Origin: Acidobacteriota bacterium
Lineage (GTDB): Bacteria > Acidobacteriota > CAIWXX01
NCBI GenBank assembly: GCA_040755995.1
Contig: JBFMAF010000036.1
Location: 192,001 to 256,000 of the forward strand
Direction of reading: 5' to 3'
Length of the DNA stretch: 64,000 nucleotides
Every line of letters begins with the position of its first letter. Position 1 is the stretch's first letter. Positions 1-19,820 of this stretch are shown here, in pieces. The position numbers and the translations under genes are program-made. Under the pieces are notes generated by a model, which was not told the DNA's origin, did not search any database, and was given only the letters and a program-made list of their open reading frames with translations.

Positions 1-1537
1 GCAGATCTCGCACCGCCCGAGCGAGGACCTCGATGCGATATGGCTTTTGCAGTAAACCGCAGATTCCCGGCGCGCGAAGCTCCTTCAACTGCCTGCTTCC
101 CGCGTCGTAGCCGGTGGTGATGAGCACCTTGACATTCGGATTCAAGCGCCTCAGCTCCCGCAGCGTCTCGATGCCGCCAAGGCGAGGCATCACCATGTCC
201 GCCAGCACCAGAGAGATCTCGCTCGTGTACTCGCGATACAGGTCCAAAGCGTCCAGACCATTCGAGGCCTCGAGGACACGGTATCCGAGTGTCTCCAGTG
301 CCAGCCGCGTCATCTTCCGGACGTCCTGGTTATCCTCTGCGACCAGGATCGTCTCATTTCCCCAGGCTACTTCCGATTCCGCTGCGGTCTGATCCAGCGC
401 CTCAGGCTTCATCAGCGGCAGATATACGTGGACGGTGGTTCCGAGCCCGACCCGGCTGCTGATGTCTACGGCCCCACCGCGGCACTCTACGAGCTGCCTG
501 GCAATCGTCAATCCAAGCCCTGTGCCCTCTCCTCTTGCCTTGGTAGTGAAGAACGGGTCGAAGATGCGGGATCGGATGTCAGGCGGGATACCTGGTCCTG
601 AATCCCGCAGGCTGAGGCGCGCGTAGTGGCCCGGCATGAGGGCCGGAGGCGCGGCCGGTGAGCCTTCTCCGACCCAGGCCTCCGCTGTGTCGATGCTCAG
701 TGTGCCACCTTCCGCCATCGCATCTCTGGCGTTTATGGCCAGGTTCAGGACCACCTGGAGCAGCTGCGTAGGATCCACTTCGACCTGCAAGTCCTCGTCG
801 GCCAGGTTCAAGGAGATCTCGATCGTTTCAGGGATGACCCGTTCCAGGAACTTGCGGGTCTCTTGGAGGAACGAATGGAGTGACAATCGGATGACGCCCT
901 GTTCCGTCTCAGGATGGCTGAATGCCAACAGTTGCTTGGCCATCTGCGCCGCCCTCTCGCTCAGAAGCCGAATGTGAAGAAGCGCCTGGTGGGCGTTGCT
1001 CTCCCCATCTACATCCTGCAGGAGCAGCTCTGTGAATCCCATGATGCCCGTCAAGAGGTTGTTGAAATCGTGCGCCACACCGTCGACCAACATGCCCACG
1101 GCCTCGAGCTTCTGACTTCGGATGAGATCTTTCTGGAGACCGCTCACCTGTCCGGGGCTGCTGATGAGGAAGATGAAGATCCACCTCCGCCGAAGCTGGA
1201 GCAGTCTGGGTCTTACCTGAAGGTAGATCGTTCCCCCGTCCTTACGCCTGTATGCCTGCCGGCACCCGTTCCACACGTCCGTCTCCAACACGCGCTCCCT
1301 CTCGGTCCCGTCCCTGGGCGGCCCCGCAAGTTTGATGTCATCGATGGGCTTCCCATAGAGCTCGGCGCGCGAGTACCCAAGCAGCGAGCAGAAGACCGGA
1401 TCAGCATCTATCAGATTCCCATGGTCATCAACCGCGTAGAATCCAATGCCGGCCGGGCTCGTCTTCAGCATGTCCTCGGCGCGTGGCGGGTTGATCGGGT
1501 TGATTGAATGTCCGCTCGCGAAAGACGCTTCCGGCAT
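1..1537 (-). CDS. PAS-domain hybrid sensor histidine kinase/response regulator (CckA-like); 3' end runs off the window
   Basis: Not in the ORF track because it has no stop in the window. Manual translation from ATG at 1537 gives PAS/PAC (FCSLLGYSRAELYGKPI...RRKDGGTIYL), H-box (SQKLEAVGMLVDGVAHDFNNLLTGI), HATPase (NLAINARDAM, PFFTTKARGEGTGLGL) and REC (ILVAEDNQDV...LADMVMP...LLQKPY). Confidence 0.92.
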   Translation of the reverse strand, partial: MPEASFASGHSINPINPPRAEDMLKTSPAGIGFYAVDDHGNLIDADPVFCSLLGYSRAELYGKPIDDIKLAGPPRDGTERERVLETDVWNGCRQAYRRKDGGTIYLQVRPRLLQLRRRWIFIFLISSPGQVSGLQKDLIRSQKLEAVGMLVDGVAHDFNNLLTGIMGFTELLLQDVDGESNAHQALLHIRLLSERAAQMAKQLLAFSHPETEQGVIRLSLHSFLQETRKFLERVIPETIEISLNLADEDLQVEVDPTQLLQVVLNLAINARDAMAEGGTLSIDTAEAWVGEGSPAAPPALMPGHYARLSLRDSGPGIPPDIRSRIFDPFFTTKARGEGTGLGLTIARQLVECRGGAVDISSRVGLGTTVHVYLPLMKPEALDQTAAESEVAWGNETILVAEDNQDVRKMTRLALETLGYRVLEASNGLDALDLYREYTSEISLVLADMVMPRLGGIETLRELRRLNPNVKVLITTGYDAGSRQLKELRAPGICGLLQKPYRIEVLARAVRDL

Positions 1538-1567
1538 ATCAATCACATAGCTACCCTTCGGAGAGTA

Positions 1568-1640
1568 CCCCTCCATATATATAGTTTCGCGAGTAGGCCG
1601 ATTCTCGCCGGCCAGAATCGATTTTTTTTGAAATTTTTTT
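1568..1640 (-). promoter_or_regulatory. Putative ECF-type promoter facing the hybrid kinase (motif copy 1)
   Basis: Minus strand reads A-tract...GGCGAG aatcggcctac TCGCGAAACT ATATATATGGAGGGG and ends about 30 nt before the kinase ATG. It matches 5745-5781 at 33/37 nt. Confidence 0.6.
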
Positions 1641-1693
1641 TGTTTTGCCGGGCGAGTTTTGGGGGTTTCGCGAAACTTATTATATAGAGGGGA
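1631..1693 (+). promoter_or_regulatory. Putative ECF-type promoter facing the small peptide gene (motif copy 2)
   Basis: T-tract...GGCGAG ttttgggggtt TCGCGAAACT TATTATATAGAGGGG, with the same 11-nt spacing as the other two copies. 1631-1656 matches 5725-5750 at 22/26 nt. Confidence 0.6.
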
Positions 1694-1846
1694 TTTTGCA
1701 AGGATGTACGGCGTGAGAGGTTTTGGGGGTTGCAGGGGCCGAGATCCCGGGTGGACGCCAACGACACGGGTCCTGACCCCCGGCGATTGTCCCAGGCGCC
1801 GGAGACCACAAGTAGTACAATCTCAAGTCAAGAGGAGGACGAGTAG

Positions 1847-2041
1847 ATGACAATAATCAAGTGGGGTTTGCTGGGTTTGCTGCTAAGCCTATTGCTATCA
1901 GGTCCGGCATGGACACCTGCTCCGCCGACAGAAAGCCGCACCACCAGCGGATCGGGGAGCATAGGCCCGGGACAAGGCAATCCGCTGGAGAACGACCCCT
2001 GTTGCGATGTGGGCCTGTCTTGTTGCGAGGTGAAGAAGTAG
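1847..2041 (+). CDS. Small secreted Cys-rich peptide (64 aa)
   Basis: Strong RBS (GAGGAGGA) before the ATG. Signal-peptide-like N-terminus (MTIIKWGLLGLLLSLLLSGPAW), Gly/Ser/Pro linker, and C-terminal DPCCDVGLSCCEVKK. Confidence 0.7.
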   Translation: MTIIKWGLLGLLLSLLLSGPAWTPAPPTESRTTSGSGSIGPGQGNPLENDPCCDVGLSCCEVKK

Positions 2042-2095
2042 CCGAGGAGTCTCAGACGCTCGATACGTTCGTCGCGACCCCGTGACGGACTGCCG

Positions 2096-5056
2096 TCACT
2101 GGTGGAATCTGGAGATTCGGCTGGGATCTCCTACGAGAACGAAGGCCGCCCACGTGCACGGGGCGCCGCCCTTTCCGGCCATTTCGACTTTGGCCTGCTG
2201 CAATGCAGATGACACGTCACGGCCGTTGGATAACATGCCACCATACATGTGGTCCATGAGCTCATTCGTCGCCACATCCTCCACGTTCCACAAGGAGGCG
2301 CATACACTGCCGGCGCCGGCAGCCAGGAACGCCCGGCTCAGGCCTATCGTCCCTTCGGCTCTTGTCTTCTGACCAGTGCCGGTCGAGCATCCGCCCAAGA
2401 CCACCAGGTCGGAGTCGACTCTGAGACGTTGAACTTCCGCGGCGGTCAAGACCCCGTCATCGCCTGACCCAGGATCATTTAGGGATAGCACGATCTCGGA
2501 CAGATCCCCCTCGACCGGGTCGGCGATGGCATGTGTGGCCAGGTGCACGATTCGGCTCGGAGTGGAGATGTCCTTCTTGAGGTTGGTTTCGTTCGCGTGG
2601 AAGTCCAGGCGGACTTCCGGATTCATGCCCGATTCCCGCGCCATGCGTGCGATTCCCAGGACTTCATCCCGCGTTGCCGGCAACCTGCGCAGTCCAGTCC
2701 GAAAACTGGGATACGACGCCGTGGAAGCGGGCATGCTCGGGACGCCCCCCGCGAGAAGGCTCTTCCTCGCTCTCTGATCCTCATCGCTGAATACCGGATC
2801 GCCGAACAGCACCAGCCTGTTCCCCGCATCACAATGCTGGCGGCTTCTGTTCTTGTCGATCTCGACCAGGACGGAAACCGACGGAGCATAAGTGACGGCG
2901 TGTTCCTGAACCAGGTATCGGAGTTCTGCGAACCCGGCTGCCCGGCTGTCCTCTGTCACCACAAGCGCCTCGATGGGAAGTCCGGCCAGCAGACTGTCAG
3001 CCACCACAACCAGGTCGCAATCCCGGATCAGACCCTCTGCCGGGAGAATGAGTTCTTTGTATAGGGTGTGTGCCGCCTGAGCATATTCCCGCACGAGCCC
3101 GGGTGGGGGCACACCTGCCGCGTACTGGCGCGCCAGGGCGGCCTGCCACTCGGCCACGTACCCATCCATCTTGTTCCAGTCGGATAGCCTGAACAGCTGC
3201 ACCGTGTCACTCTTCAACACGATCAAATAGCTTTCCCTGATCCCAGTCTGGTAGACGAGAATCGCGGTGCGCGGATGCCTCGATAGGAATTCTCTTTGAA
3301 CCTGGTCGGCGGACAAAGGTCTGATCGAGGGAGCCGCAGGTTCCGACCCGGATTCGATCTCGATTCTCCTTGCCACCAGGCCGCTCCGCCATCCTTCGAT
3401 GCGATCCAACTCAACTCGACTGAGCTCAATACCCGACTGCGCGACTGCAAGCCGCCGCCCGAGCGCCGAGATCCCTCTCAAGAGCGAAGGATCGCTCCAT
3501 CGATCCAGCCTGGTGTCTGCGGGAGCGCATGGTCCGTTGCCGCGCGAAACGTCAACGAGGAGCTCGCGGCTCCGGCACCGCTCCGCGTACTCGAAGGCCT
3601 TCCGAGCGTGCCCGGGGTCGTGGCTCTTCGAATCCAGCCTGTCAAGGCACATGACGATCTCAGTGCAGATGGCCTTCGCCTGGGAGAGGTATCTTTCCCG
3701 CAACTCCGGCACAGTCGCCTGCTCCCACGCACGCTCGACGTCGTCCAATGCCCGCTCGCAGAGGTCCATTGCCGCTCGGTGGTTTCCCGCCGCCATTTCG
3801 CCGTCGGCCAATGTCTGAAGCGCTCTACGGCGCGGCGCCGGATCCGGATCGTGAGGATCGCACAAGTCGGCTGCCTCTCTGGCCGAAAGCATCATCTTCT
3901 GGGCCTCGCCCAACCCAAAGTAGGCCGGGCCTTGGAGGTTGAGCACCGAGGCAATCTCATCTTGGAGGGCCGCTCGCCGAGCAAGCCCAAGCCCGTCTTC
4001 GAGCAGGCGTAGGCTCTCTGCATAGCGCCTGCTCTTCAGATTCGCGCGTGCGAGAGCGCATATGGCCTCCAACCTCGTACGCGGGTCCAGGCCGCTGCTC
4101 AGCTCGTACGCCCTCCTTGCGCAGTCCATCGATCGCTGGGAATCCTGGCCCCCGATCGAGTCGGCGTCGGCCACCCCAAGCAGGACTCGGTGTGTCGCAG
4201 GTGCCTCGACTCCCGCAAGCCGGCCTGCGTTGCGCAAGTGCACGCGGGCGAGCTCGGATCTCCCGAGGTAAGAGAAGATGTCGTAGAGCTGCAGCTGGAC
4301 CATCGCTTCGGAGACGTCTGCGGCCGCCAGCCCTCTAGCGTGCACACGTGCCTCGCGGAACCGGCCGATCGCCTCTGCATACAGCATCCGTCTGGCCAGC
4401 GACCTCCCCCTTTCGAGGGCCACGGCGTAGCTGCCGTATCTGAAATCAGATGCCCGGGCGGCCTCGTCGGCCCGTGCATAGCATTCCTCCGCCTCCGCGA
4501 ATCGCCCTCGCTCACGCAGATACTTGCCCATCGAAACATCGAGCCAGCAGATGGCTCGATCATTCCGGTGGCGTGCGGCCCAGCGCAACCCCTCGTTGTA
4601 CTGGCTGGCCACGTGGGCCTCGCTCCAGTCCTCTTCCATCTGCCCCGCCCTCAGCGAAAGCCAGTAGGTCCCGAACTGATCAGGGTCCAGGCCACACACA
4701 ACGACCATGTACCGCCCCGTCGACGGCAGGGTCGCGCTGATTCTCGGGTTGAAGAAGCAGTCCGAGTCATCACTCCATGCCAACTCGCGGCCCCGAGGAT
4801 CCACCAGCACCATGTGCGAGTTGAACTCGTAAGAACTGCATGCCAGGGTGACCTGTTGGCCGCGGGAGCCGGCGAATGACCAGCACTGGTGCGGACCGCG
4901 TGGCGCCCTGGCCCAGGAGGGATCGGTCTGGAGGAGGCTTCCGTGGCGCGTCTCGTCGAGCTTGATCTGCCGTTCGCCCTGGATGCTGAATCCATTGTGC
5001 AGCGCACAGAGTAGAGCCATGCTGCCGAGTACCGCGACAAACCCGCGCTGCTTCAT
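2096..5056 (-). CDS. PPC-TPR-CHAT domain protein (caspase-like cysteine protease), probably exported
   Basis: Hydrophobic N-terminus, a PPC-like domain (FAGSRGQQVTL...ATLPSTGRYMVVV...GTYWLSL) and Ala-rich TPR helices. CHAT motifs: AFEYAERCRSRELL, LPIEAL, YAPS, LPATRDEV, IVHLATHA (His), LVVLGGCSTG (Cys), SLWNVED, WAAFVLVG. Confidence 0.92.
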   Translation of the reverse strand: MKQRGFVAVLGSMALLCALHNGFSIQGERQIKLDETRHGSLLQTDPSWARAPRGPHQCWSFAGSRGQQVTLACSSYEFNSHMVLVDPRGRELAWSDDSDCFFNPRISATLPSTGRYMVVVCGLDPDQFGTYWLSLRAGQMEEDWSEAHVASQYNEGLRWAARHRNDRAICWLDVSMGKYLRERGRFAEAEECYARADEAARASDFRYGSYAVALERGRSLARRMLYAEAIGRFREARVHARGLAAADVSEAMVQLQLYDIFSYLGRSELARVHLRNAGRLAGVEAPATHRVLLGVADADSIGGQDSQRSMDCARRAYELSSGLDPRTRLEAICALARANLKSRRYAESLRLLEDGLGLARRAALQDEIASVLNLQGPAYFGLGEAQKMMLSAREAADLCDPHDPDPAPRRRALQTLADGEMAAGNHRAAMDLCERALDDVERAWEQATVPELRERYLSQAKAICTEIVMCLDRLDSKSHDPGHARKAFEYAERCRSRELLVDVSRGNGPCAPADTRLDRWSDPSLLRGISALGRRLAVAQSGIELSRVELDRIEGWRSGLVARRIEIESGSEPAAPSIRPLSADQVQREFLSRHPRTAILVYQTGIRESYLIVLKSDTVQLFRLSDWNKMDGYVAEWQAALARQYAAGVPPPGLVREYAQAAHTLYKELILPAEGLIRDCDLVVVADSLLAGLPIEALVVTEDSRAAGFAELRYLVQEHAVTYAPSVSVLVEIDKNRSRQHCDAGNRLVLFGDPVFSDEDQRARKSLLAGGVPSMPASTASYPSFRTGLRRLPATRDEVLGIARMARESGMNPEVRLDFHANETNLKKDISTPSRIVHLATHAIADPVEGDLSEIVLSLNDPGSGDDGVLTAAEVQRLRVDSDLVVLGGCSTGTGQKTRAEGTIGLSRAFLAAGAGSVCASLWNVEDVATNELMDHMYGGMLSNGRDVSSALQQAKVEMAGKGGAPCTWAAFVLVGDPSRISRFHQ

Positions 5057-5229
5057 TTGAGACTTCCCGGGCCTCGGAGCGGCGACGCAGCTCTCAAGGC
5101 CTGACCTGCACTCTTCCGACGGGTCCGCGCGGCCTCCGCCGTTCCCACCAGCAAGAGCTGCTATTGCAGGACTATGAACTAGAGCTACTATCTCGACCTG
5201 TGAACTCGATCAGCCTAGCAGACCCCCTC

Positions 5230-5275
5230 TGAAAAAGCAATCGCATGCAAGTGAAAAAGCAATCGCATGCAAGTG
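5230..5275. repeat. Perfect 22-bp tandem direct repeat (TGAAAAAGCAATCGCATGCAAG x2)
   Basis: Read directly at 5230-5251 and 5252-5273, followed by TG, in the divergent CHAT/sigma intergenic region. Confidence 0.9.
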
Positions 5276-5661
5276 GGTGGTGGTGGCAAGCGCGCAAGCG
5301 GGTGGTGGGCGGGGGCGCGTTGGCGACGGAGCGACGGGAGAGACGAGCAGAGGGGTCCGGCCGACTGTCCAGGCGGATACCCCGCAACGTCACGAGAGGC
5401 CGCCCGTGGAAGCCGCGGCCGCGGCGGTTGTGGTAGTATTCGAGCCATGATCTGGCCCTGGCGCACGCACCGCATTCCTGTGGAGCGAGGGCTCGGGCCG
5501 CCAGAAGGGCCGCCGGAGCCACATCTCGTCACGCAGGACGCGGCCGGCACCGGCCCCGACGGTGGAATGCCACACGGCATGTGCCTCTCCCGGCTGCTAA
5601 CTACTAGAAACCAAAGACAACACATGCGTTTCCGGACCCGTTCCGGCGCAAGGTAGACCTC

Positions 5662-6216
5662 ATGAGCGCCGAGCTTTTCGCCATGATGAAGCGCGCCCAA
5701 GAGGGTGACCCCGAAGAAAAAAACAAACTTTTTTCGTTTTTGCGGGCGAGAATTGGCACTCTCGCGAAACTATATATATGGGGGGATGATATTGAGGAGG
5801 TCGTTCAGGAGACGATGATGGTGGTCACCAGCCAGTTCCCCTCTTTGAGGACCCCCGAGGCTCTGATCGCGTTCGCCAACAAGGTACTTCGAAACAAGAT
5901 GGGGAATTTGTACAAGCGGCGAGATAGCCGAAAGGCGTTGCTGGTGAGCCTGGAGGAGCTCGAGGAGCACCCCTTCTACACCGTCGAAGAATGGGGTCCT
6001 GGAAAGCTTCATGAGATAGTGTTCGAGGCGATCGAGCTGCTTGGGAATTCGAGGCCGGTCTGCCGCGATCTGCTGATGGGGCTGCTGGCGGGGGAGACCA
6101 GCGAGGAACTGTGCCAGAGTCTGAGCATCCCTCCCCACAGGCTCGATGATCGCGTATACAAGTGTCGTAGTGCTTTGCGGCGGATACTCCGTGAGAGGTG
6201 GGGTCTCCGTGTGTGA
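5662..6216 (+). CDS. ECF-subfamily sigma-70 RNA polymerase sigma factor
   Basis: 184 aa with region 2 (RAQEGD...LF..LR.RI..LA...DIEEVVQET...VLRNK) and a region 4 HTH (LAGETSEELCQSLSIP...RVYKCRSALR). A zf-HC2 gene follows it. Confidence 0.88.
   Translation: MSAELFAMMKRAQEGDPEEKNKLFSFLRARIGTLAKLYIWGDDIEEVVQETMMVVTSQFPSLRTPEALIAFANKVLRNKMGNLYKRRDSRKALLVSLEELEEHPFYTVEEWGPGKLHEIVFEAIELLGNSRPVCRDLLMGLLAGETSEELCQSLSIPPHRLDDRVYKCRSALRRILRERWGLRV
5725..5787 (+). promoter_or_regulatory. Promoter-like motif copy 3, embedded in the sigma factor coding sequence
   Basis: AAACTTTTTTCGTTTTTGCG GGCGAG aattggcactc TCGCGAAACT ATATATATGGGGGG. The 21-mer at 5761-5781 is identical to the reverse complement of 1573-1593. 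Confidence 0.6.
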
Positions 6217-6259
6217 CGAACGGTCTACAGACGCCGCGCGAACTGAGGAGGTGGCCCAG

Positions 6260-6412
6260 ATGAAGCCAGTGACACCACAACGCGGTCCTGTGCCTGCGGC
6301 GACTGTGCCTCCTGGCACGATGTGCCGCCGTCCGAACAACTGCCGTTCCAGTCGTCCCGTTGCGTCGCCGCCGTCAGAGCGGCAAGGACGATTCTGCGAG
6401 CCACTCCGATGA
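6260..6412 (+). CDS. Hypothetical 50-aa Pro/Arg/Cys-rich protein between sigma and anti-sigma
   Basis: RBS GAGGAGGT upstream of ATG 6260. Its TGA overlaps the anti-sigma ATG (ATGA at 6409-6412). No recognisable domain. Confidence 0.45.
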   Translation: MKPVTPQRGPVPAATVPPGTMCRRPNNCRSSRPVASPPSERQGRFCEPLR

Positions 6413-7218
6413 CCGAACTGAAATGCACGAATCCCGAAGCCGGGAAGCTGATCGGGCGGTATGAGCTGGGTGCGCTTGACGATGCTCTGCGCGAGGAGTT
6501 CGTGAAGCATCTGTTGGAGTGTGAGTTCTGCCACAATGAGCTGTTGGTCATGGCCCCGTTCACGGACGTGCTCCGCGAGTATCGCGAGGCGGTCATGCGC
6601 GGCGAGGTGCCTGCGCCTTCACGCCGGGCACCGGCTCAACCAAGGATCGCGGCATGGCGCAGAGCGAATGGAGTTCGGCTGGCCGCTGCTGCGTCACTGG
6701 TCGTAGCCATCAGCGTCGGAGCCCTGATCTGCATGTATCAGCTCATGAAGGAGCCTGGCGAAGATCAAGGCGCTGCGCTGCAGCTGCCGGGCGGTGTGAC
6801 GATCCCCAAGGCGCCGTTTGTCGCGGGCCCCGAGGTGCCGGTCACTCGCAGCCAGGAATTCGGCGACACGTTCCAAAGAGCAATGGCTGCTTACGAACGG
6901 GACGACTTCGCGACCGCAGCCGAGCGGCTCGAGGTTCTGTGCAGGCTTGTTCCAGACCACGCAGATGCACAATTCTACTGGGGGGTATCGCTGCTTTTCG
7001 CCGGAAGACCCGATGATGCCATCGTACCCCTCAGGAAGGCGATAAGGCTCAACACCGGGCACCAACAGGAGGCCTGCCGGTTCTACCTGGCTGCAGCATA
7101 CGTCAAGAGCGGCCGGATGGATGAGGCGCTTGCCGAGTTGGGAAACGTCATTGCCCTGGGCGGGCAACACGGGGAGGATGCCGAGAAGCTCAAGAGTATT
7201 GTGACCCGCATGAAGTAG
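6409..7218 (+). CDS. Zinc-finger (zf-HC2) anti-sigma factor with TM helix and C-terminal TPR domain
   Basis: YELGAL...FVKHLLECEFC (HxxxCxxC), TM segment LAAAASLVVAISVGALI, and TPRs (FQRAMAAYERDDFATAA..., AQFYWGVSLL, RFYLAAAY). Start moved from 6322 to ATG 6409. Confidence 0.88.
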   Translation: MTELKCTNPEAGKLIGRYELGALDDALREEFVKHLLECEFCHNELLVMAPFTDVLREYREAVMRGEVPAPSRRAPAQPRIAAWRRANGVRLAAAASLVVAISVGALICMYQLMKEPGEDQGAALQLPGGVTIPKAPFVAGPEVPVTRSQEFGDTFQRAMAAYERDDFATAAERLEVLCRLVPDHADAQFYWGVSLLFAGRPDDAIVPLRKAIRLNTGHQQEACRFYLAAAYVKSGRMDEALAELGNVIALGGQHGEDAEKLKSIVTRMK

Positions 7219-7480
7219 AACGCAACCTGAGTGCTCGTTTCGGCGCGGCTTGTACGCGTCGGAACGGCAATGGAATAACCGGGGACTGAGAGGATATGTT
7301 TGTCAAATCAGAAGAGCTGTTGCTCGCCGCAACAAGACACTGCAACACCAAGTCTGTAGGAACAACTGAATCGGAAGCAGCGAGTCAGATCGGTGTTGTC
7401 GAGGAACATGTCTTGGCGGCCGATCCGGCTCTTAGCTGTGCGTCATTCCTGCAGCGACACTGCGCAAGGGGTCTAGTCTG

Positions 7481-10400
7481 ATGATCAATGAAGAAATGGG
7501 TCCAGCCGTAGATTGTGCGACGCTCCTCGAGCTTCTGAAATCGAGAGCGCGTTCTCAACCTGACCAGCGCGCCTACACCTTCCAGACCGACGGTGCGTCC
7601 GAAGAGCTGCATCTGACGTACGCCGAGCTGGATCGGAGAGCGAGAGCCGTAGCAGCGAAGTTGCAGTCGTTGGGTGCGCCAGGTGGACGCGCCATGCTCC
7701 TCTATCCGCCGGGTTTGGACTACATAGCGGCGTTTTTCGGGTGCCTCTACGCGGACGTCGCCGCCGTGCCCGTCTATCCTCCACGCCCTAACCGCCCCAT
7801 GTCCAGGTTCCTCGCCATCTTCGAAGATGCCCAGGCCGGCGTGGCCCTGACGACCTCCGCGATTCTCCCCGTCGTCGACGCTGTTCTGGGGCGGGATGAG
7901 AAGACGAATTGGATTGCCACCGACGAGACTCCCGGCGACCTGGCACAAACCTGGGATGAACCGCCCGTGCGCGGCGATACCCTCGCGTTCATCCAGTACA
8001 CATCCGGCTCAACATCCAGCCCCAAAGGCGTGATGCTCACGCACGCCAACCTGCTTCACAATCTCGACACGACCTATCACGCGTTCGGGATCACCCCCGG
8101 AAGCCGTGCGGTCATCTGGTTGCCGCCCTATCACGACATGGGCTTGATCGGGGGAATCCTTCAGCCGCTCTATGGGGGCTTTCCGGCGGTCCTGATGTCC
8201 CCCATGACCTTCCTCCAGCAACCGTATCGGTGGCTCCACGCTGTTTCTCGTCACAGGGCCACGGTCAGTGGAGGCCCGAATTTCGCATACGATCTCTGCG
8301 TTCGCAAGATCACGGCCGAGCAGCGAGCGACGCTGGACCTCAGTAGCTGGGTCGCGGCATTCAACGGCGCGGAACCGATCAGGCCGGAGACGATCGATCT
8401 ATTCACGAAGACGTTCGAGCCGTGCGGCTTCAGGAGGGAGGCGTTCTACCCCTGTTACGGGCTCGCAGAAGGCACGTTGATCGTATCCGGCGGCAGCGTG
8501 GCTGACCCGCCGGTCGTGAAGGGGTTCCGGCCGGATGCGCTCGCACAGCACCACGCAGCCGAGTGCGCCATTTCGGACGCCAACGCAAGAAAACTCGTCA
8601 GCAGCGGCCGCGCCGTCGGCCGGCAGCGAATCGTTGTTGTCGATCCCGAGACCCTGATCACGCTGGAGCCCGGCGGCGTCGGCGAGGTCCTGGTATCAGG
8701 CCCGAGTATCGCCCGCGGCTACTGGAATCGGCCCGACGAAACGGCCCGGACGTTTGCAGCCTTCTTGTCGAGCAACGCGGATGGCCCGTTTCTCCGAACC
8801 GGCGACCTCGGGTTTCTTCATGATGGCGAGTTGTTCATCACGGGACGCATCAAGGACCTGATCATCATTCGCGGCCGCAATCACTACCCGCAGGACATCG
8901 AAGCGACCGTCGAGAAGTGCCACCCGGCGATCCGGCCCGGATGCGCGGCGGCATTCTCAGTGGAAGCCGATGAAGAAGAACGTCTCGTGGTTGCCACGGA
9001 AATCAAGCGTGAGCATCGCGGCGAAGACTTGGTTGACGTGATCGACGCCATCCGCCAGGCGATCACAGAGGAGCACGAGATCCAGCTTCACGCAGCGGTG
9101 CTGCTCAGGCCCGGCAGTCTCCCGAAGACATCGAGCGGGAAGGTACAACGTCACGCGTGCCGCGCCGCGTTTCTTGTCGGCGAGCTCGAGGCGGCAGGCG
9201 AGTGGAAGGAGTCTGCGGTCATCACTCAGCCCGACACGCTGGTCGAGTCCCAGGAGCAGTTCGAGAGATGGCTCACGGATCAGCTCGCCGCCCGGCTCAG
9301 GGTCCCGTCCGCGTCGATTGATGCGCACCAGTCGCTGAACCGCTACGCCCTCGACTCCTTGAATGCAATCGAGCTGGCGCATGTGATCGAGCAGCAGGTG
9401 GCCGTTCACATTCCCCTGGAGAGGATCTTCGAGGGGCCGACTATCGCCGAACTGGCTCGCGAGGCGTGGGCACGACGGACAGCACCCGCCCGGCCGTACG
9501 TTCCTGCTCCACCCGCCGAATCGATGACCAAACACCCGCTCTCGGCCGGCCAGCGAGCGCTCTGGTTCTTGCATCAACTGGAGCCCGAGAGTGCGGCTTA
9601 CAACGTCCCCGCCGCCGTCCGTCTTCTGGGCGACCTGGATGTCCCGGCGCTCCATCGAGCATTCGGATCCCTCGCCGGCCGGCACCCCATCCTGCGAATG
9701 ACCTTCGCATCCGTCGGCGGCGAACCCGTCCAGGAAGCTCGTAACGATCCGAGCTTCGAGCAGCTCGACGCATCCACCTGGGACGACGAAGCGGTGCGGA
9801 AGCAACTCAACGACGAGGCCAACCGGCCGTTCGATCTGCAACGCGGTCCCCTGATGCGAGTCCGGCTCCTGCGCAGGTACGATCGCGAGCATCTTCTCAT
9901 GCTCAACATGCACCATATCATCACCGACTTCTGGTCGCAGGCAGTGATCATGCGGGATCTCGGCCAACTGTACGAGGCCGAAAGGAGCGGCCGCGCTGCG
10001 GATCTCCCGTCTCTGGCTCTCCAGTATTCTGATTTCGCTCGCATCCAGGACGAGATGCTGGGCGGGCCGGAAGGAGAGCGGCTCCGAGCCTTTTGGCAGA
10101 AGCAGCTCGCGGGCGAGCTGCCGATCCTGAATCTGCGCACGGATCGGCCCCGCCCACCGGTCCAGACCTATCGCGGTGCGGTGCAGCCCGTCACGGTCGA
10201 CGAGGACGATTGGAGCCGGTTGAAGGATCTCGGCCGCAGAAACAATGCAACCCCGTTCATGACGCTCCTCGCCGCCTTCCACGTCCTGCTCCGCCGCTAC
10301 ACCGGGCAGCGCGACATCGTGATCGGCGCACCCATGGCGGGGAGAAGCCGGGCACAGCTATCCAACATGCTGGGATACTTCGTCAACCCGGTCGCTCTGC

Positions 10401-17353: not shown

Positions 17354-17462
17354 GACGGCAATGCGGCCCATTCGTTGTCATCGGCTGCTGAGGGCCGGAT
17401 CGCAGCCGTCGCGTCAGCACACTTCTCGGAGATGGTTCGGGCTATTAAGCGGAGCGTTTGAA

Positions 17463-19820
17463 ATGGAAAAGAAGCAACAAGTGGCACCTGGTTCTCGTGC
17501 CTCATCTCCGACGAGCGGCATTCCGCGCGACGCGCGTGTGGAAGCCTCCCGCCTGCAGACCCGCCGGCCGAGGCGCCCGGCGGCGATACGATGGGCATGT
17601 CCCGTCCCGCTGCTCGCACTGGCCTGGTTCCTCTCGGTTCTCCAGGTGCGCGCCGGCGACGTTCCTCAGAAGTACAGTGTGCCCGCTCAGCCTCTGGCGA
17701 CGGCGCCTATGATCGACGGGCGTCTGGATGATCCCGTTTGGACGAAAGCCACTGCACTCTCGGATTTCACCCAGTACGAACCAATCGAGGGGGCGCCGGC
17801 ATCGGAGAAGACCGTCGTCACACTCGGCTATAACGAGAATACTTTCTTCCTCGGAATCCGCTGCTTCGACTCCCAGCCCGAACGCCGCGTCGAGAAGCAG
17901 ATGCAGAGAGACGGGGACCTCACGTTCGACGACTTCGTCGAGATCATCATCGACACGTACCACGACCGGAGAAACGGCTTCCTCTTTTCGGTCAACGCAC
18001 TGGGCGCGAAGCTCGACGGAATGGTTCGAAACGAAGGCGAGGAGATCAAGACGGAATGGGACGGGGAATGGGAGTGCGTGACCACACGCGATGACCAGGG
18101 CTGGAACGCCGAGATGGCGATTCCGTTGAGCACTCTCAGGTTTCCGACGAAGGAGCCGCAGGCGTGGGGGATCAACATCATGCGCTATCTGCCCCGCAAC
18201 AACGAGAAGCTGTTCTGGAAGCCGCTCACGCGCGCCGACGGCTACAACTACCGGTACCGCATCTCGGCCTACGGCGAGATCACAGGGTTGCAGAACTTGA
18301 AGTCTGGAAGGCGATTCCTCGTGTCGCCCTATGTCACGGGCGTGGCGGCGAATGAGAGCCATCTGCCGTCGGAGCCCGCGTTCAACGGCGGCATCGATCT
18401 CAAAGCCAATCTCGCGTCCAATCTCGTCGCGGACTTCACGTACCGGCTCGACTTTGCCGAGGCCGAGGCGGATCTCAGGCAGATCAACCTCAGCCGCTAT
18501 CCTCTGTACCTCCCCGAGAAGCGGGAGTTCTTCACCGAATCATCGGACATGTTCTACTTCGGCGACCGCCCGGAACCCTTCGAGCTCGCTCAGCGGGAGA
18601 AGTTCAATTTCTTCTTCAGTCGCAACATTGGGTTGACCCCCGACGGCAGACACAAGATCCCGGTTATCGGAGGCGCGAAGGTGACCGGCAAGCTCGGGGG
18701 CACCACTATCGGGTTTCTGAACCTCACGACCGATGCCGCAGCGATCCCTCCGATCGGCGGCGAGGACGCGTACGACGTCCCTCGGACAAACTACGCCGTC
18801 CTGCGGATGCGCCACGATGTCTACTCGAAGTCGAAAGTCGGCCTCATCGTTCTGAACAAGGACGCATCCGGCGACGAATACAATCGCGGCTTCGGCGTCG
18901 ACGGCGACTTCGCCCTCGGCAAGAACTTCACCGTCAGCGGGTTCCTGGCTGCGACTTCCACCCCCGACCTGCGCGGTGAAGACCGCGCCTGGGCAGTCGA
19001 TACCGTCTGGGACAGCAAGCTCTTCCGATTTCGAAACATGTACACCGAAGTCGGAGAGAACTTCAATCCGGAGATGGGCTTTCTCACGCGCCCTGACATC
19101 AAGAAGTTCCATTCGAACCTGCTCATGACCAGAAGGCCCCAGTTCTGGGGGCTGCGCAAGATCAACATCGTCTACGACTTCAACTACGTGACCGACACGG
19201 AGGGACGCCTGCTCACGCAGACGAGCATCTACGAGCTTGGGTTCATTCATAACAAGGGCACTGCCGGGGTCGCGTTTCTCTTCTATGACCATCTGGAAGT
19301 CCTGCCGACCGACTGGACGAAGACGCTCGATGCGTCCTACTCCGTCGTGATTCCACGCGGATCATATCGGTACCGCAACTTCTTCATCGGTGCCGCGACT
19401 GATCGCCGCCAACCGCTCAGCGCCACAGTCTGGTTCGACAAGGGCGGCTATTACAACGGCACGCGTTTCCAGTTCCTCGTCCAGCCCATCTACCGGCCGA
19501 GGGAAGGGGTCGACACATCGATGATTCTGGACCGCCAGGAGTTCCACTTCCCCGACGGCGACCACACTACGTTGCAGATATCGGGGAGTGTCGGGCTGAC
19601 TCTCCCTCACGACACCTGGGTGAAGACTCTGCTGCAGTGGACGAGGGGCGACAACTTCGGCGCCAACGTGATTTTCAACTGGGCTTTCCTGCCGGATGCC
19701 AGCCTCTACCTCATCTACGATGGCACGCGCGATGTCTACGCCGGGACCGCAGATGTCCCAGAACAGATCGTCAACGATCGATCGTTCGTCGCGAAGGTCG
19801 CCTACAACCTCTCTCACTGA
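17463..19820 (+). CDS. CBM9-like/DUF5916-type exported protein, probable outer-membrane beta-barrel
   Basis: Signal-peptide-like segment. Motifs APMIDGRLDDPVW, GWNAEMAIPLSTLRF, INLSRYPLYLPEKREFF, FFSRNIG and NFNPEMGF, a beta-strand-rich C-half, and terminal VAKVAY. Start uncertain. Confidence 0.72.
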   Translation: MEKKQQVAPGSRASSPTSGIPRDARVEASRLQTRRPRRPAAIRWACPVPLLALAWFLSVLQVRAGDVPQKYSVPAQPLATAPMIDGRLDDPVWTKATALSDFTQYEPIEGAPASEKTVVTLGYNENTFFLGIRCFDSQPERRVEKQMQRDGDLTFDDFVEIIIDTYHDRRNGFLFSVNALGAKLDGMVRNEGEEIKTEWDGEWECVTTRDDQGWNAEMAIPLSTLRFPTKEPQAWGINIMRYLPRNNEKLFWKPLTRADGYNYRYRISAYGEITGLQNLKSGRRFLVSPYVTGVAANESHLPSEPAFNGGIDLKANLASNLVADFTYRLDFAEAEADLRQINLSRYPLYLPEKREFFTESSDMFYFGDRPEPFELAQREKFNFFFSRNIGLTPDGRHKIPVIGGAKVTGKLGGTTIGFLNLTTDAAAIPPIGGEDAYDVPRTNYAVLRMRHDVYSKSKVGLIVLNKDASGDEYNRGFGVDGDFALGKNFTVSGFLAATSTPDLRGEDRAWAVDTVWDSKLFRFRNMYTEVGENFNPEMGFLTRPDIKKFHSNLLMTRRPQFWGLRKINIVYDFNYVTDTEGRLLTQTSIYELGFIHNKGTAGVAFLFYDHLEVLPTDWTKTLDASYSVVIPRGSYRYRNFFIGAATDRRQPLSATVWFDKGGYYNGTRFQFLVQPIYRPREGVDTSMILDRQEFHFPDGDHTTLQISGSVGLTLPHDTWVKTLLQWTRGDNFGANVIFNWAFLPDASLYLIYDGTRDVYAGTADVPEQIVNDRSFVAKVAYNLSH

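Follow-up and report, generated by a model that had tools for sequence, protein, structure and literature searches.

The window analysed here is a 64,000-nucleotide stretch of DNA from an Acidobacteriota bacterium (assembly GCA_040755995.1, contig JBFMAF010000036.1, positions 192,001 to 256,000 of the forward strand; source genome G000). Close to its left edge, four neighbouring genes encode a predicted secreted peptide, a TPR-CHAT protease, a sigma factor of the extracytoplasmic function (ECF) type and a membrane-spanning anti-sigma factor, as an original prediction made from the sequence alone had placed them. Coordinates are window positions (1-64,000) unless a contig or locus is named. The peptide gene (1847-2041, + strand; 64 aa) and the protease gene (2096-5056, - strand; 986 aa) lie tail to tail with 54 bp between them. 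The sigma gene (5662-6216, + strand; 184 aa) is divergent from the protease gene and is followed by the anti-sigma gene (6409-7218, + strand; 269 aa). Divergent from the peptide gene is a gene for a PAS-HisKA-HATPase-receiver hybrid histidine kinase (542 aa; 1-1576, - strand, running 52 bp off the left edge). Between the protease and sigma genes, a direct repeat of ~22 bases (GAAAAAGCAATCGCATGCAAGT, two copies; 5224-5272) could be an operator. Rfam gave no match in window positions 1-9000, nor was any RNA holder listed for this region.

The CHAT domain of the protease (Pfam PF12770, residues 661-977) scored 191.9 bits against a cut-off of 24 (E 2e-56). Its putative catalytic residues H842 (2531-2533) and C890 (2387-2389) were invariant in 46/46 aligned CHATs, 24 from the subfamily and 22 from outside it, so that the His/Cys dyad is intact as first proposed. 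A structure model built from 5 sequences (poor in the catalytic domain; mean pLDDT, the predicted local distance difference test, 66.8) places a PPC-like beta-sandwich (~35-137) behind the hydrophobic N-terminus, followed by a TPR solenoid (~146-480) and then CHAT. The beta-sandwich, absent from the first description of this protein, is recognized as Pfam PPC in 4/46 aligned members but not in the window protease. A hydrophobic N-terminal stretch was present in 22/24 subfamily CHATs, the other two appearing N-terminally truncated, and this hydropathy suggests that the protease is exported or membrane-anchored. With the model as query, Foldseek returned DdvA as top match (E 3e-12, 15% identity), then Csx29 (E about 1e-10) and separase; a search of the PDB with the CHAT-domain sequence returned only Csx29, at E 0.97. 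The genome holds 14 Pfam CHAT matches.

The peptide has a signal-like hydrophobic N-terminus, a variable spacer and a C-terminal CC-x5-CC tail (residues 52-60), and matched nothing in Pfam, NCBIfam or Atlas. By chance such a tail is rare: 12 of 65,984 six-frame open reading frames (ORFs) of the genome contain it, and two of these are the peptides of this and a second module on contig C24 of the same genome. In all, 22 loci were compared, namely the window, C24, three loci in two genomes of the same family (one of them G001) and four plus thirteen loci from Blastocatellia. The four were found with the anti-sigma or sigma profile and the thirteen with the protease N-terminus, which matched 15/301 genomes of the class; no locus was selected by its peptide, and 3/22 stop at a contig edge before the protease 3' end. 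A CC-x5-CC peptide of 55-77 residues with a hydrophobic N-terminus faced the protease 3' end in 19/19 loci with downstream DNA, 18 times within about 200 bp and once 1.3 kb away. Core position 3 is Gly in 15/19 of these peptides and position 4 is Leu or Ala in all 19.

Sigma and anti-sigma genes were found at 21/22 loci. Gene order differs among the loci, with protease and peptide always paired, even where sigma and anti-sigma lie ~7.6 kb away (L001, the C24 locus). The peptide profile did not match near 10 other CHAT genes of the genome, nor at two G001 loci with a sigma/anti-sigma/CHAT set of another subtype. The four genes are therefore a conserved Acidobacteriota module, and both the recurrence of the set and the retention of the peptide beside homologous proteases, on which the original prediction depended, hold. 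The two G001 loci (L027 and L028, on contigs C109 and C164) carry operons of sigma, zinc-TM-TPR anti-sigma (TM, transmembrane helix) and TPR-CHAT without the PPC-like domain or the CC peptide; at L028, convergent low-complexity polar ORFs stand in the peptide's place. The sigma subfamily is narrow: strong scores occurred in 3/401 genomes of a phylum sample, alongside five distant ECFs (~1e-27), two of whose loci have no CHAT gene within 17 kb. Above a sharp drop in score, the protease subfamily counts 19 clusters of full-length CHAT proteins. In a collection of genome contigs, the anti-sigma profile matched 4 loci and a single-protein scan with the sigma returned nothing; outside it, the anti-sigma profile matched 3 short metagenome loci. 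A similar kinase is divergent from the peptide at 4/21 other loci, and a contig-cut PAS fragment is found at a fifth.

Both regulators score below curated cut-offs (sigma, an ECF of divergent sequence: Sigma70_r2 21.1 bits against 24, TIGR02937 33.5 against 42.9; anti-sigma: zf-HC2 17.8 against 22.2). Their assignments are nevertheless settled, because homologues of the sigma carry PF04542/PF07638 and the zinc ligands of the anti-sigma are conserved across 119 homologues, with H34, C38 and C41 invariant and C6 present in 96%. The longest anti-sigma ORF opens at 6322, and homologue alignments begin at the ATG at 6409. A single hydrophobic helix at about 91-109 separates the CHCC zinc domain from a predicted extracytoplasmic C-terminal TPR domain, in agreement with the predicted membrane-spanning zinc anti-sigma. 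The region first suggested for cleavage, EVPVT-R-S, contains Arg147 (6847-6849), a candidate P1 residue that is R in 89% and K in 6% of the homologues, mostly within L-R-G, in an otherwise gapped and variable linker. Arg occupies this column in 20/21 module anti-sigmas and is one place off in the remaining one. In the anti-sigma model (mean pLDDT 87.7), residues 141-150 form a loop (pLDDT 62) flanked on one side by a packed strand and on the other by the first helix of the TPR. According to a report on DdvA/DdvS of Myxococcus xanthus, separases cut after Arg, and DdvA is proposed to be cut in its linker by CHAT and next by RseP; its CHAT site looks towards the linker that joins the membrane helix to the TPR (PMC11506125). 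By conservation and by this analogy, the CHAT protease is likely to cut the anti-sigma. At L029:9523-10110 (G000:C20), a TPR protein closely resembling the anti-sigma ectodomain keeps the linker Arg and has no zinc domain or membrane helix in its ORF; it could be a remnant or a decoy.

What is new here is that each of the two module sigma genes of this genome contains a promoter-like motif within its coding sequence, and that this motif recurs ahead of the module's own peptide gene and of a small predicted regulon, at 7 sites in one case and 11 in the other. The motif of the window sigma, type 1, consists of a T tract, GGCGAG, a spacer of 13 bases, GCGAAACT, an A/T run and a G run; of its seven genome sites, three are local (ahead of the peptide gene, ahead of the kinase gene and within the sigma gene at 5745) and four lie far away. 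The sigma-internal copy (5723-5788, + strand; codons about 21-42) is directed at the anti-sigma gene, and the copy facing the peptide gene (1629-1694, + strand) shares 30/42 identity with it (shuffle maximum 24). Back to back with the latter, across a shared A/T tract, lies the copy facing the kinase (1566-1631, - strand; predicted -35 GGCGAG at 1609-1604, -10 near GAAACT; 50.8 bits when left out), which makes the kinase a predicted member of the regulon. Left out in turn, the seven sites scored 47-80 bits, whereas the reversed genome had none above 14. The sigma of the second module carries a different in-gene version, type 2 (CGCAAGA ... CCAAATC), with 11 sites including one inside that sigma gene, one before its own peptide and nine elsewhere; six of them were new to a five-site matrix and scored 45-57 bits (control maximum 14.7). 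Further motif patterns were designed from the sites that they recover and are not independent evidence.

Codon adaptation of the window sigma drops to 0.35 in codons 21-40, compared with 0.48-0.76 elsewhere; the sigma of the second module dips similarly (about 0.35) over these codons, a sign that the DNA itself is under selection. The back-to-back kinase/peptide pair was also seen by eye at G001:C287 and G001:C43, and when sigma-internal and peptide sites were compared as ungapped 42-mers, 2/6 loci scored were above shuffles. A sigma-70 promoter scan gave nothing above chance. The symmetry GCGAG...CTCGC of type 1 raised the alternative of a palindromic operator; it is lost in type 2, where spacing and flanks persist, so a promoter fits better. 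Judged by these sequence features, the motif is very likely the cognate promoter of the module sigma. Because the internal site lies within the sigma gene, it cannot yield full-length sigma and points at the anti-sigma, the brake. There is a precedent in E. coli, where a sigma-dependent promoter inside rpoE drives rseA. The motif is thus positioned as the feedback loops of the original prediction need, before the peptide and the kinase and ahead of the anti-sigma.

By Pfam and NCBIfam, the genes behind the motif sites include four hybrid kinases, a secretin operon and a TPR plus Rhs/Ig pair; visual inspection added an operon for chemotaxis, two further sigma-like genes and a secreted protein rich in Cys. 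None of the 18 sites is on the contig with the Cas10 of the genome; downstream genes were identified at most sites, and no defence-library scan was made. At L001 (G000:C24:234216-246281), a 397-aa TPR protein and a 1731-aa Rhs-repeat/Ig protein are encoded between anti-sigma and peptide; the promoter type of this operon is that of the window sigma and not that of the L001 sigma, a hint of regulatory crosstalk linking the two modules. Tandem type-1 and type-2 motifs (G000:C33:60697 and 60595, - strand; L031/L127) precede the gene of a secreted protein without annotation, whose C-terminal tail is rich in cysteine. Type-2 motifs at G000:C56:36772 and C3:107555 (both - strand; L121/L122) precede two similar cassettes of a small sigma-like gene and a large ORF, subtilase-like by eye in C3, with a weak CHAT match also in C56; a second-tier sigma cascade is possible. 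Two contig ends (G000:C20:324, - strand, and C51:73829, + strand; L032/L033) share almost the same type-1 promoter and gene start, leading to PKD/Ig and TPR-secretin genes, and represent a duplicated secretion operon or an assembly repeat. Finally, a type-2 motif (G000:C33:68074, - strand) stands before an ion-transport gene, a gene for an Ig-domain protein with His/Ser repeats and a pair of radical SAM genes (L127:4618-9657), a set that resembles His-Xaa-Ser systems.

The complex of protease residues 30-984 with peptide residues 22-64 was modelled alongside three controls. The pair scored 0.81 against 0.00 for the best control, with a peptide pLDDT of at least 47; by a rough calibration with own alignments, this mark is reached by 116/157 solved complexes and 2/215 mismatched pairs. 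Runs have at least 42% of contacts in common. The cysteine core is seated in the TPR groove (265-469) and touches CHAT at 604-607, 627, 631, 688-689, 897 and 899, the His/Cys dyad not being among the named contacts. R410, Q414, S458, Q459, K461, A462 and T465 are each kept in at least 20/24 subfamily members and differ in the 22 outside. The modelling suggested by the original prediction speaks for its pairing and for the peptide as an allosteric ligand but shows neither, and the peptide quite probably binds the CHAT protein. C464, in a helix lining the modelled groove, is invariant in 24/24 subfamily members and is not among the top residues of the other 22 CHATs; it could have a structural role or undergo thiol exchange with the peptide.

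Collectively, these data suggest that the four-gene unit is probably a route by which a peptide signal from outside is converted, through proteolysis, into gene expression. The best explanation as a whole is a peptide-gated switch of regulated proteolysis with an activating peptide, to which we assign a probability of roughly 0.4. As in other zinc-binding anti-sigma factors and in DdvA, the zinc domain of the membrane anti-sigma would keep the ECF sigma inactive. The exported PPC-TPR-CHAT protein would be a resting protease, turned on when the CC-x5-CC peptide occupies the TPR groove at the CHAT junction. CHAT would then cut the anti-sigma after Arg147 and remove the TPR cap, and an RseP-type M50 protease, for which the genome has a gene, would make the second cut in the membrane and free the sigma, as conservation and the DdvA proposal suggest. 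From its own motif, the sigma would transcribe more peptide (amplifying) and, from the sigma-internal promoter, more anti-sigma (resetting). Its further targets would be few and spread over the genome, hybrid histidine kinases foremost, together with genes for secretion, Rhs and chemotaxis.

A number of observations weigh against this account. The linker Arg is also kept in a sigma-linked anti-sigma without a CHAT gene in 20 kb (L030) and in the zinc-less TPR protein of L029, so Arg147 may be structural or be cut by a distant CHAT. CHAT specificity is not uniform, as craspases cut after Met or Leu according to the same accessible portion (PMC11506125). Six of the Blastocatellia peptides are near-identical, and the 19 loci therefore represent fewer independent cases. 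In the complex model, TPR interface residues average a conservation of 0.65 compared with 0.64 for the remaining TPR, and the fold of the peptide itself is uncertain (pLDDT about 48). Solved TPR-peptide complexes are common, so the complex score may partly reflect generic likeness. The motif before the peptide clearly beats shuffles at 4/19 loci and marginally at 3; at none of the 12 other Blastocatellia peptides is the matrix above shuffles, so that the motif is shown for this family and G401 only. The G001:C43 sigma gene has no internal copy. Lastly, a comparison of -35/-10 boxes at six loci speaks for the account, as sigma-internal and own-peptide boxes match better within loci than across them (70 against a mean of 59.7; 5/720 permutations), but the boxes were set after viewing the sites, the loci are related and two of them match poorly.

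The sign of the peptide's effect is the least secure step. The modelled site, located where TPR and CHAT meet and away from the dyad, would be compatible with allosteric activation and inhibition alike. We lean only slightly towards activation. Alternatively, CHAT could be a site-1 protease triggered by some other envelope or foreign signal, perhaps via the PPC-like domain, with the sigma-induced peptide acting as a feedback inhibitor that plugs the TPR groove. Under this scheme the peptide, which like the anti-sigma is preceded by a predicted sigma promoter, would form with it a pair of brakes. Moreover, its core differs little between the genome's two modules (CCDVGLSCC and CCLFGADCC), and private pheromones are often more variable than that. 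An inhibitory small protein has a precedent in the Haliangium cascade, where PCaspase is reported to be inhibited in this way (10.1101/2023.06.23.546230). Set against this, the peptide is restricted to this CHAT subfamily, as expected of a dedicated ligand, and we regard the inhibitor scheme as somewhat improbable.

A second alternative leaves the anti-sigma uncut by CHAT, which would instead mature or degrade the peptide or another envelope protein, while the anti-sigma TPR senses the signal and a housekeeping protease makes the first cut. The anti-sigma family is indeed much wider (70 representatives at E up to 1e-30) than the 19 CHAT clusters, its Arg persists without a nearby CHAT gene in L030, and L115 has CHAT and peptide with no sigma or anti-sigma found in the 17 kb fetched. 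Furthermore, autoproteolysis of DdvA is itself a proposal. However, sigma and anti-sigma accompany this CHAT at 21/22 loci, and the peptide, modelled off the active site, lacks a conserved basic residue that would mark it for a CHAT cut, so that we hold this alternative to be unlikely.

The original prediction went on to propose a quorum-type switch dedicated to the adjacent biosynthetic gene cluster (BGC). This hybrid non-ribosomal peptide synthetase/polyketide synthase (NRPS/PKS) cluster (7481-62541, + strand), with a thioesterase and a penicillin-amidase-family gene, is context outside the conserved module. It begins on the same strand 263 bp past the anti-sigma gene; no canonical terminator was called in between, so read-through from the sigma-internal site is conceivable. 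A strong G+C-rich hairpin of about 15 pairs without a U tail lies directly 3' of the anti-sigma stop (7232-7273, + strand; in minimum free energy and centroid folds; whole-region z -0.78) and may or may not halt it. We consider a dedicated switch very unlikely, since the motif reached at best -16 bits within the gap and -5 anywhere in the cluster, against 47-80 for true sites, and since no NRPS/PKS assembly line was found at the 21 other loci, the second module of the genome included (7-21 kb fetched; one weak reductase-like match, E 8e-7). Ahead of the protease gene the score was -21. The cluster is at most an incidental read-through target, and natural-product work should be cautioned that the neighbouring sigma is unlikely to wake it. 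Between its first two megasynthase genes, an 819-aa CBM9-like/DUF5916 protein (17361-19820) occupies an odd place for a probable outer-membrane protein.

If the peptide does gate the protease, bacterial caspase-like proteases would reach beyond immunity into ordinary outside-in signalling, and peptide signalling would gain a route in Acidobacteriota, an abundant but little-studied phylum. A bolder and rather doubtful extension is a Gram-negative class of cell-to-cell signalling, in which a disulfide-knotted autoinducer activates a free periplasmic caspase-like protease that opens the anti-sigma, with sigma-gene promoters insulating paralogous modules and a built-in brake. Should it be true, an extracytoplasmic TPR-CHAT would for the first time have a defined ligand, and the DdvA cut proposal could be put directly to the test. 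No conserved outer-membrane exporter was seen at the surveyed loci, and the peptide may remain in the periplasm rather than leave the cell. DdvA is the only studied extracytoplasmic TPR-CHAT anti-sigma, with no signal described for it and its first cut a proposal; in the module the pieces come apart, with a candidate ligand open to synthesis, a modelled binding site, one Arg as the sole scissile candidate and a promoter prediction that could serve a reporter. Promoters inside sigma coding sequences also give a simple way to predict regulons of uncharacterized ECF sigmas.

No description of the four-gene set was found in the literature searched, in which coverage of subscription journals was thin. 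In logic, the module recalls RRNPP receptors such as Rap-Phr: the gene for a small exported peptide neighbours that of its receptor, and the peptide, lodged in a TPR groove, governs the attached effector domain; RapF was among the TPR matches. RRNPP receptors are cytoplasmic proteins of Gram-positive bacteria that bind re-imported linear peptides, whereas here a predicted exported protease would be the receptor and the peptide is built around a core of four cysteines.

Other CHAT-associated sigma systems share single elements. ECF54, the only group under which CHAT is named in the accessible part of the supplement, likewise has an ECF sigma conserved near a TPR-CHAT protein with a suggested role in regulation (PMC7826278). 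As described there, however, it is confined to Actinobacteria, has no anti-sigma, has subtilase and carboxypeptidase-regulatory-like neighbours and differs in its predicted promoter (GTATCAG/CTCC). We rejected membership in ECF54, as the relatives of the module are Acidobacteriota and have an anti-sigma. Type III-E Craspase (Csx29/Csx30/CASP-sigma; PMC10028731) also employs a TPR-CHAT protease and frees a sigma by cutting a sequestering partner. It is described as cytoplasmic, as activated by Cas7-11 and target RNA and as having a soluble substrate, unlike the module as predicted. The annotated window ORFs include no cas gene, the Cas10 of the genome being on another contig, and the window sigma scored 19.6 bits against the type III-E sigma model (cut-off 100). 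In the absence of a Cas7-11 locus, Craspase membership was rejected as well. The original prediction had framed the locus as a CRISPR-independent, extracytoplasmic analogue of Csx29/Csx30. CRISPR-independence agrees with the lack of motif sites on the Cas10 contig, but the closest analogue is DdvA/DdvS, already published as an extracytoplasmic TPR-CHAT/anti-sigma/ECF system (PMC11506125).

That report gives the closest parallel. DdvA/DdvS and the module both combine an ECF sigma, a CHCC zinc anti-sigma with one membrane helix and a TPR-CHAT with a His/Cys dyad, extracytoplasmic in DdvA and predicted to be so here from hydropathy (22/24). DdvA, however, is a single fused dimeric protein, while the module has a separate protease gene at all 21 loci holding both. 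Its anti-sigmas are about 250-300 aa and end in a short TPR, and the protease, unlike DdvA, has a predicted export signal of its own and a PPC-like domain. Where no signal is described for DdvA, the module encodes a dedicated, predicted secreted peptide beside the protease. DdvS drives a CBASS/CRISPR island and acts on its own promoter among others; the module motif lies inside the sigma gene and is aimed at anti-sigma, kinases, secretion and chemotaxis. With its protease unfused and no defence island in its predicted regulon, the module is not a member of this system but, by analogy, would work like a split DdvA/DdvS to which a peptide has been added.

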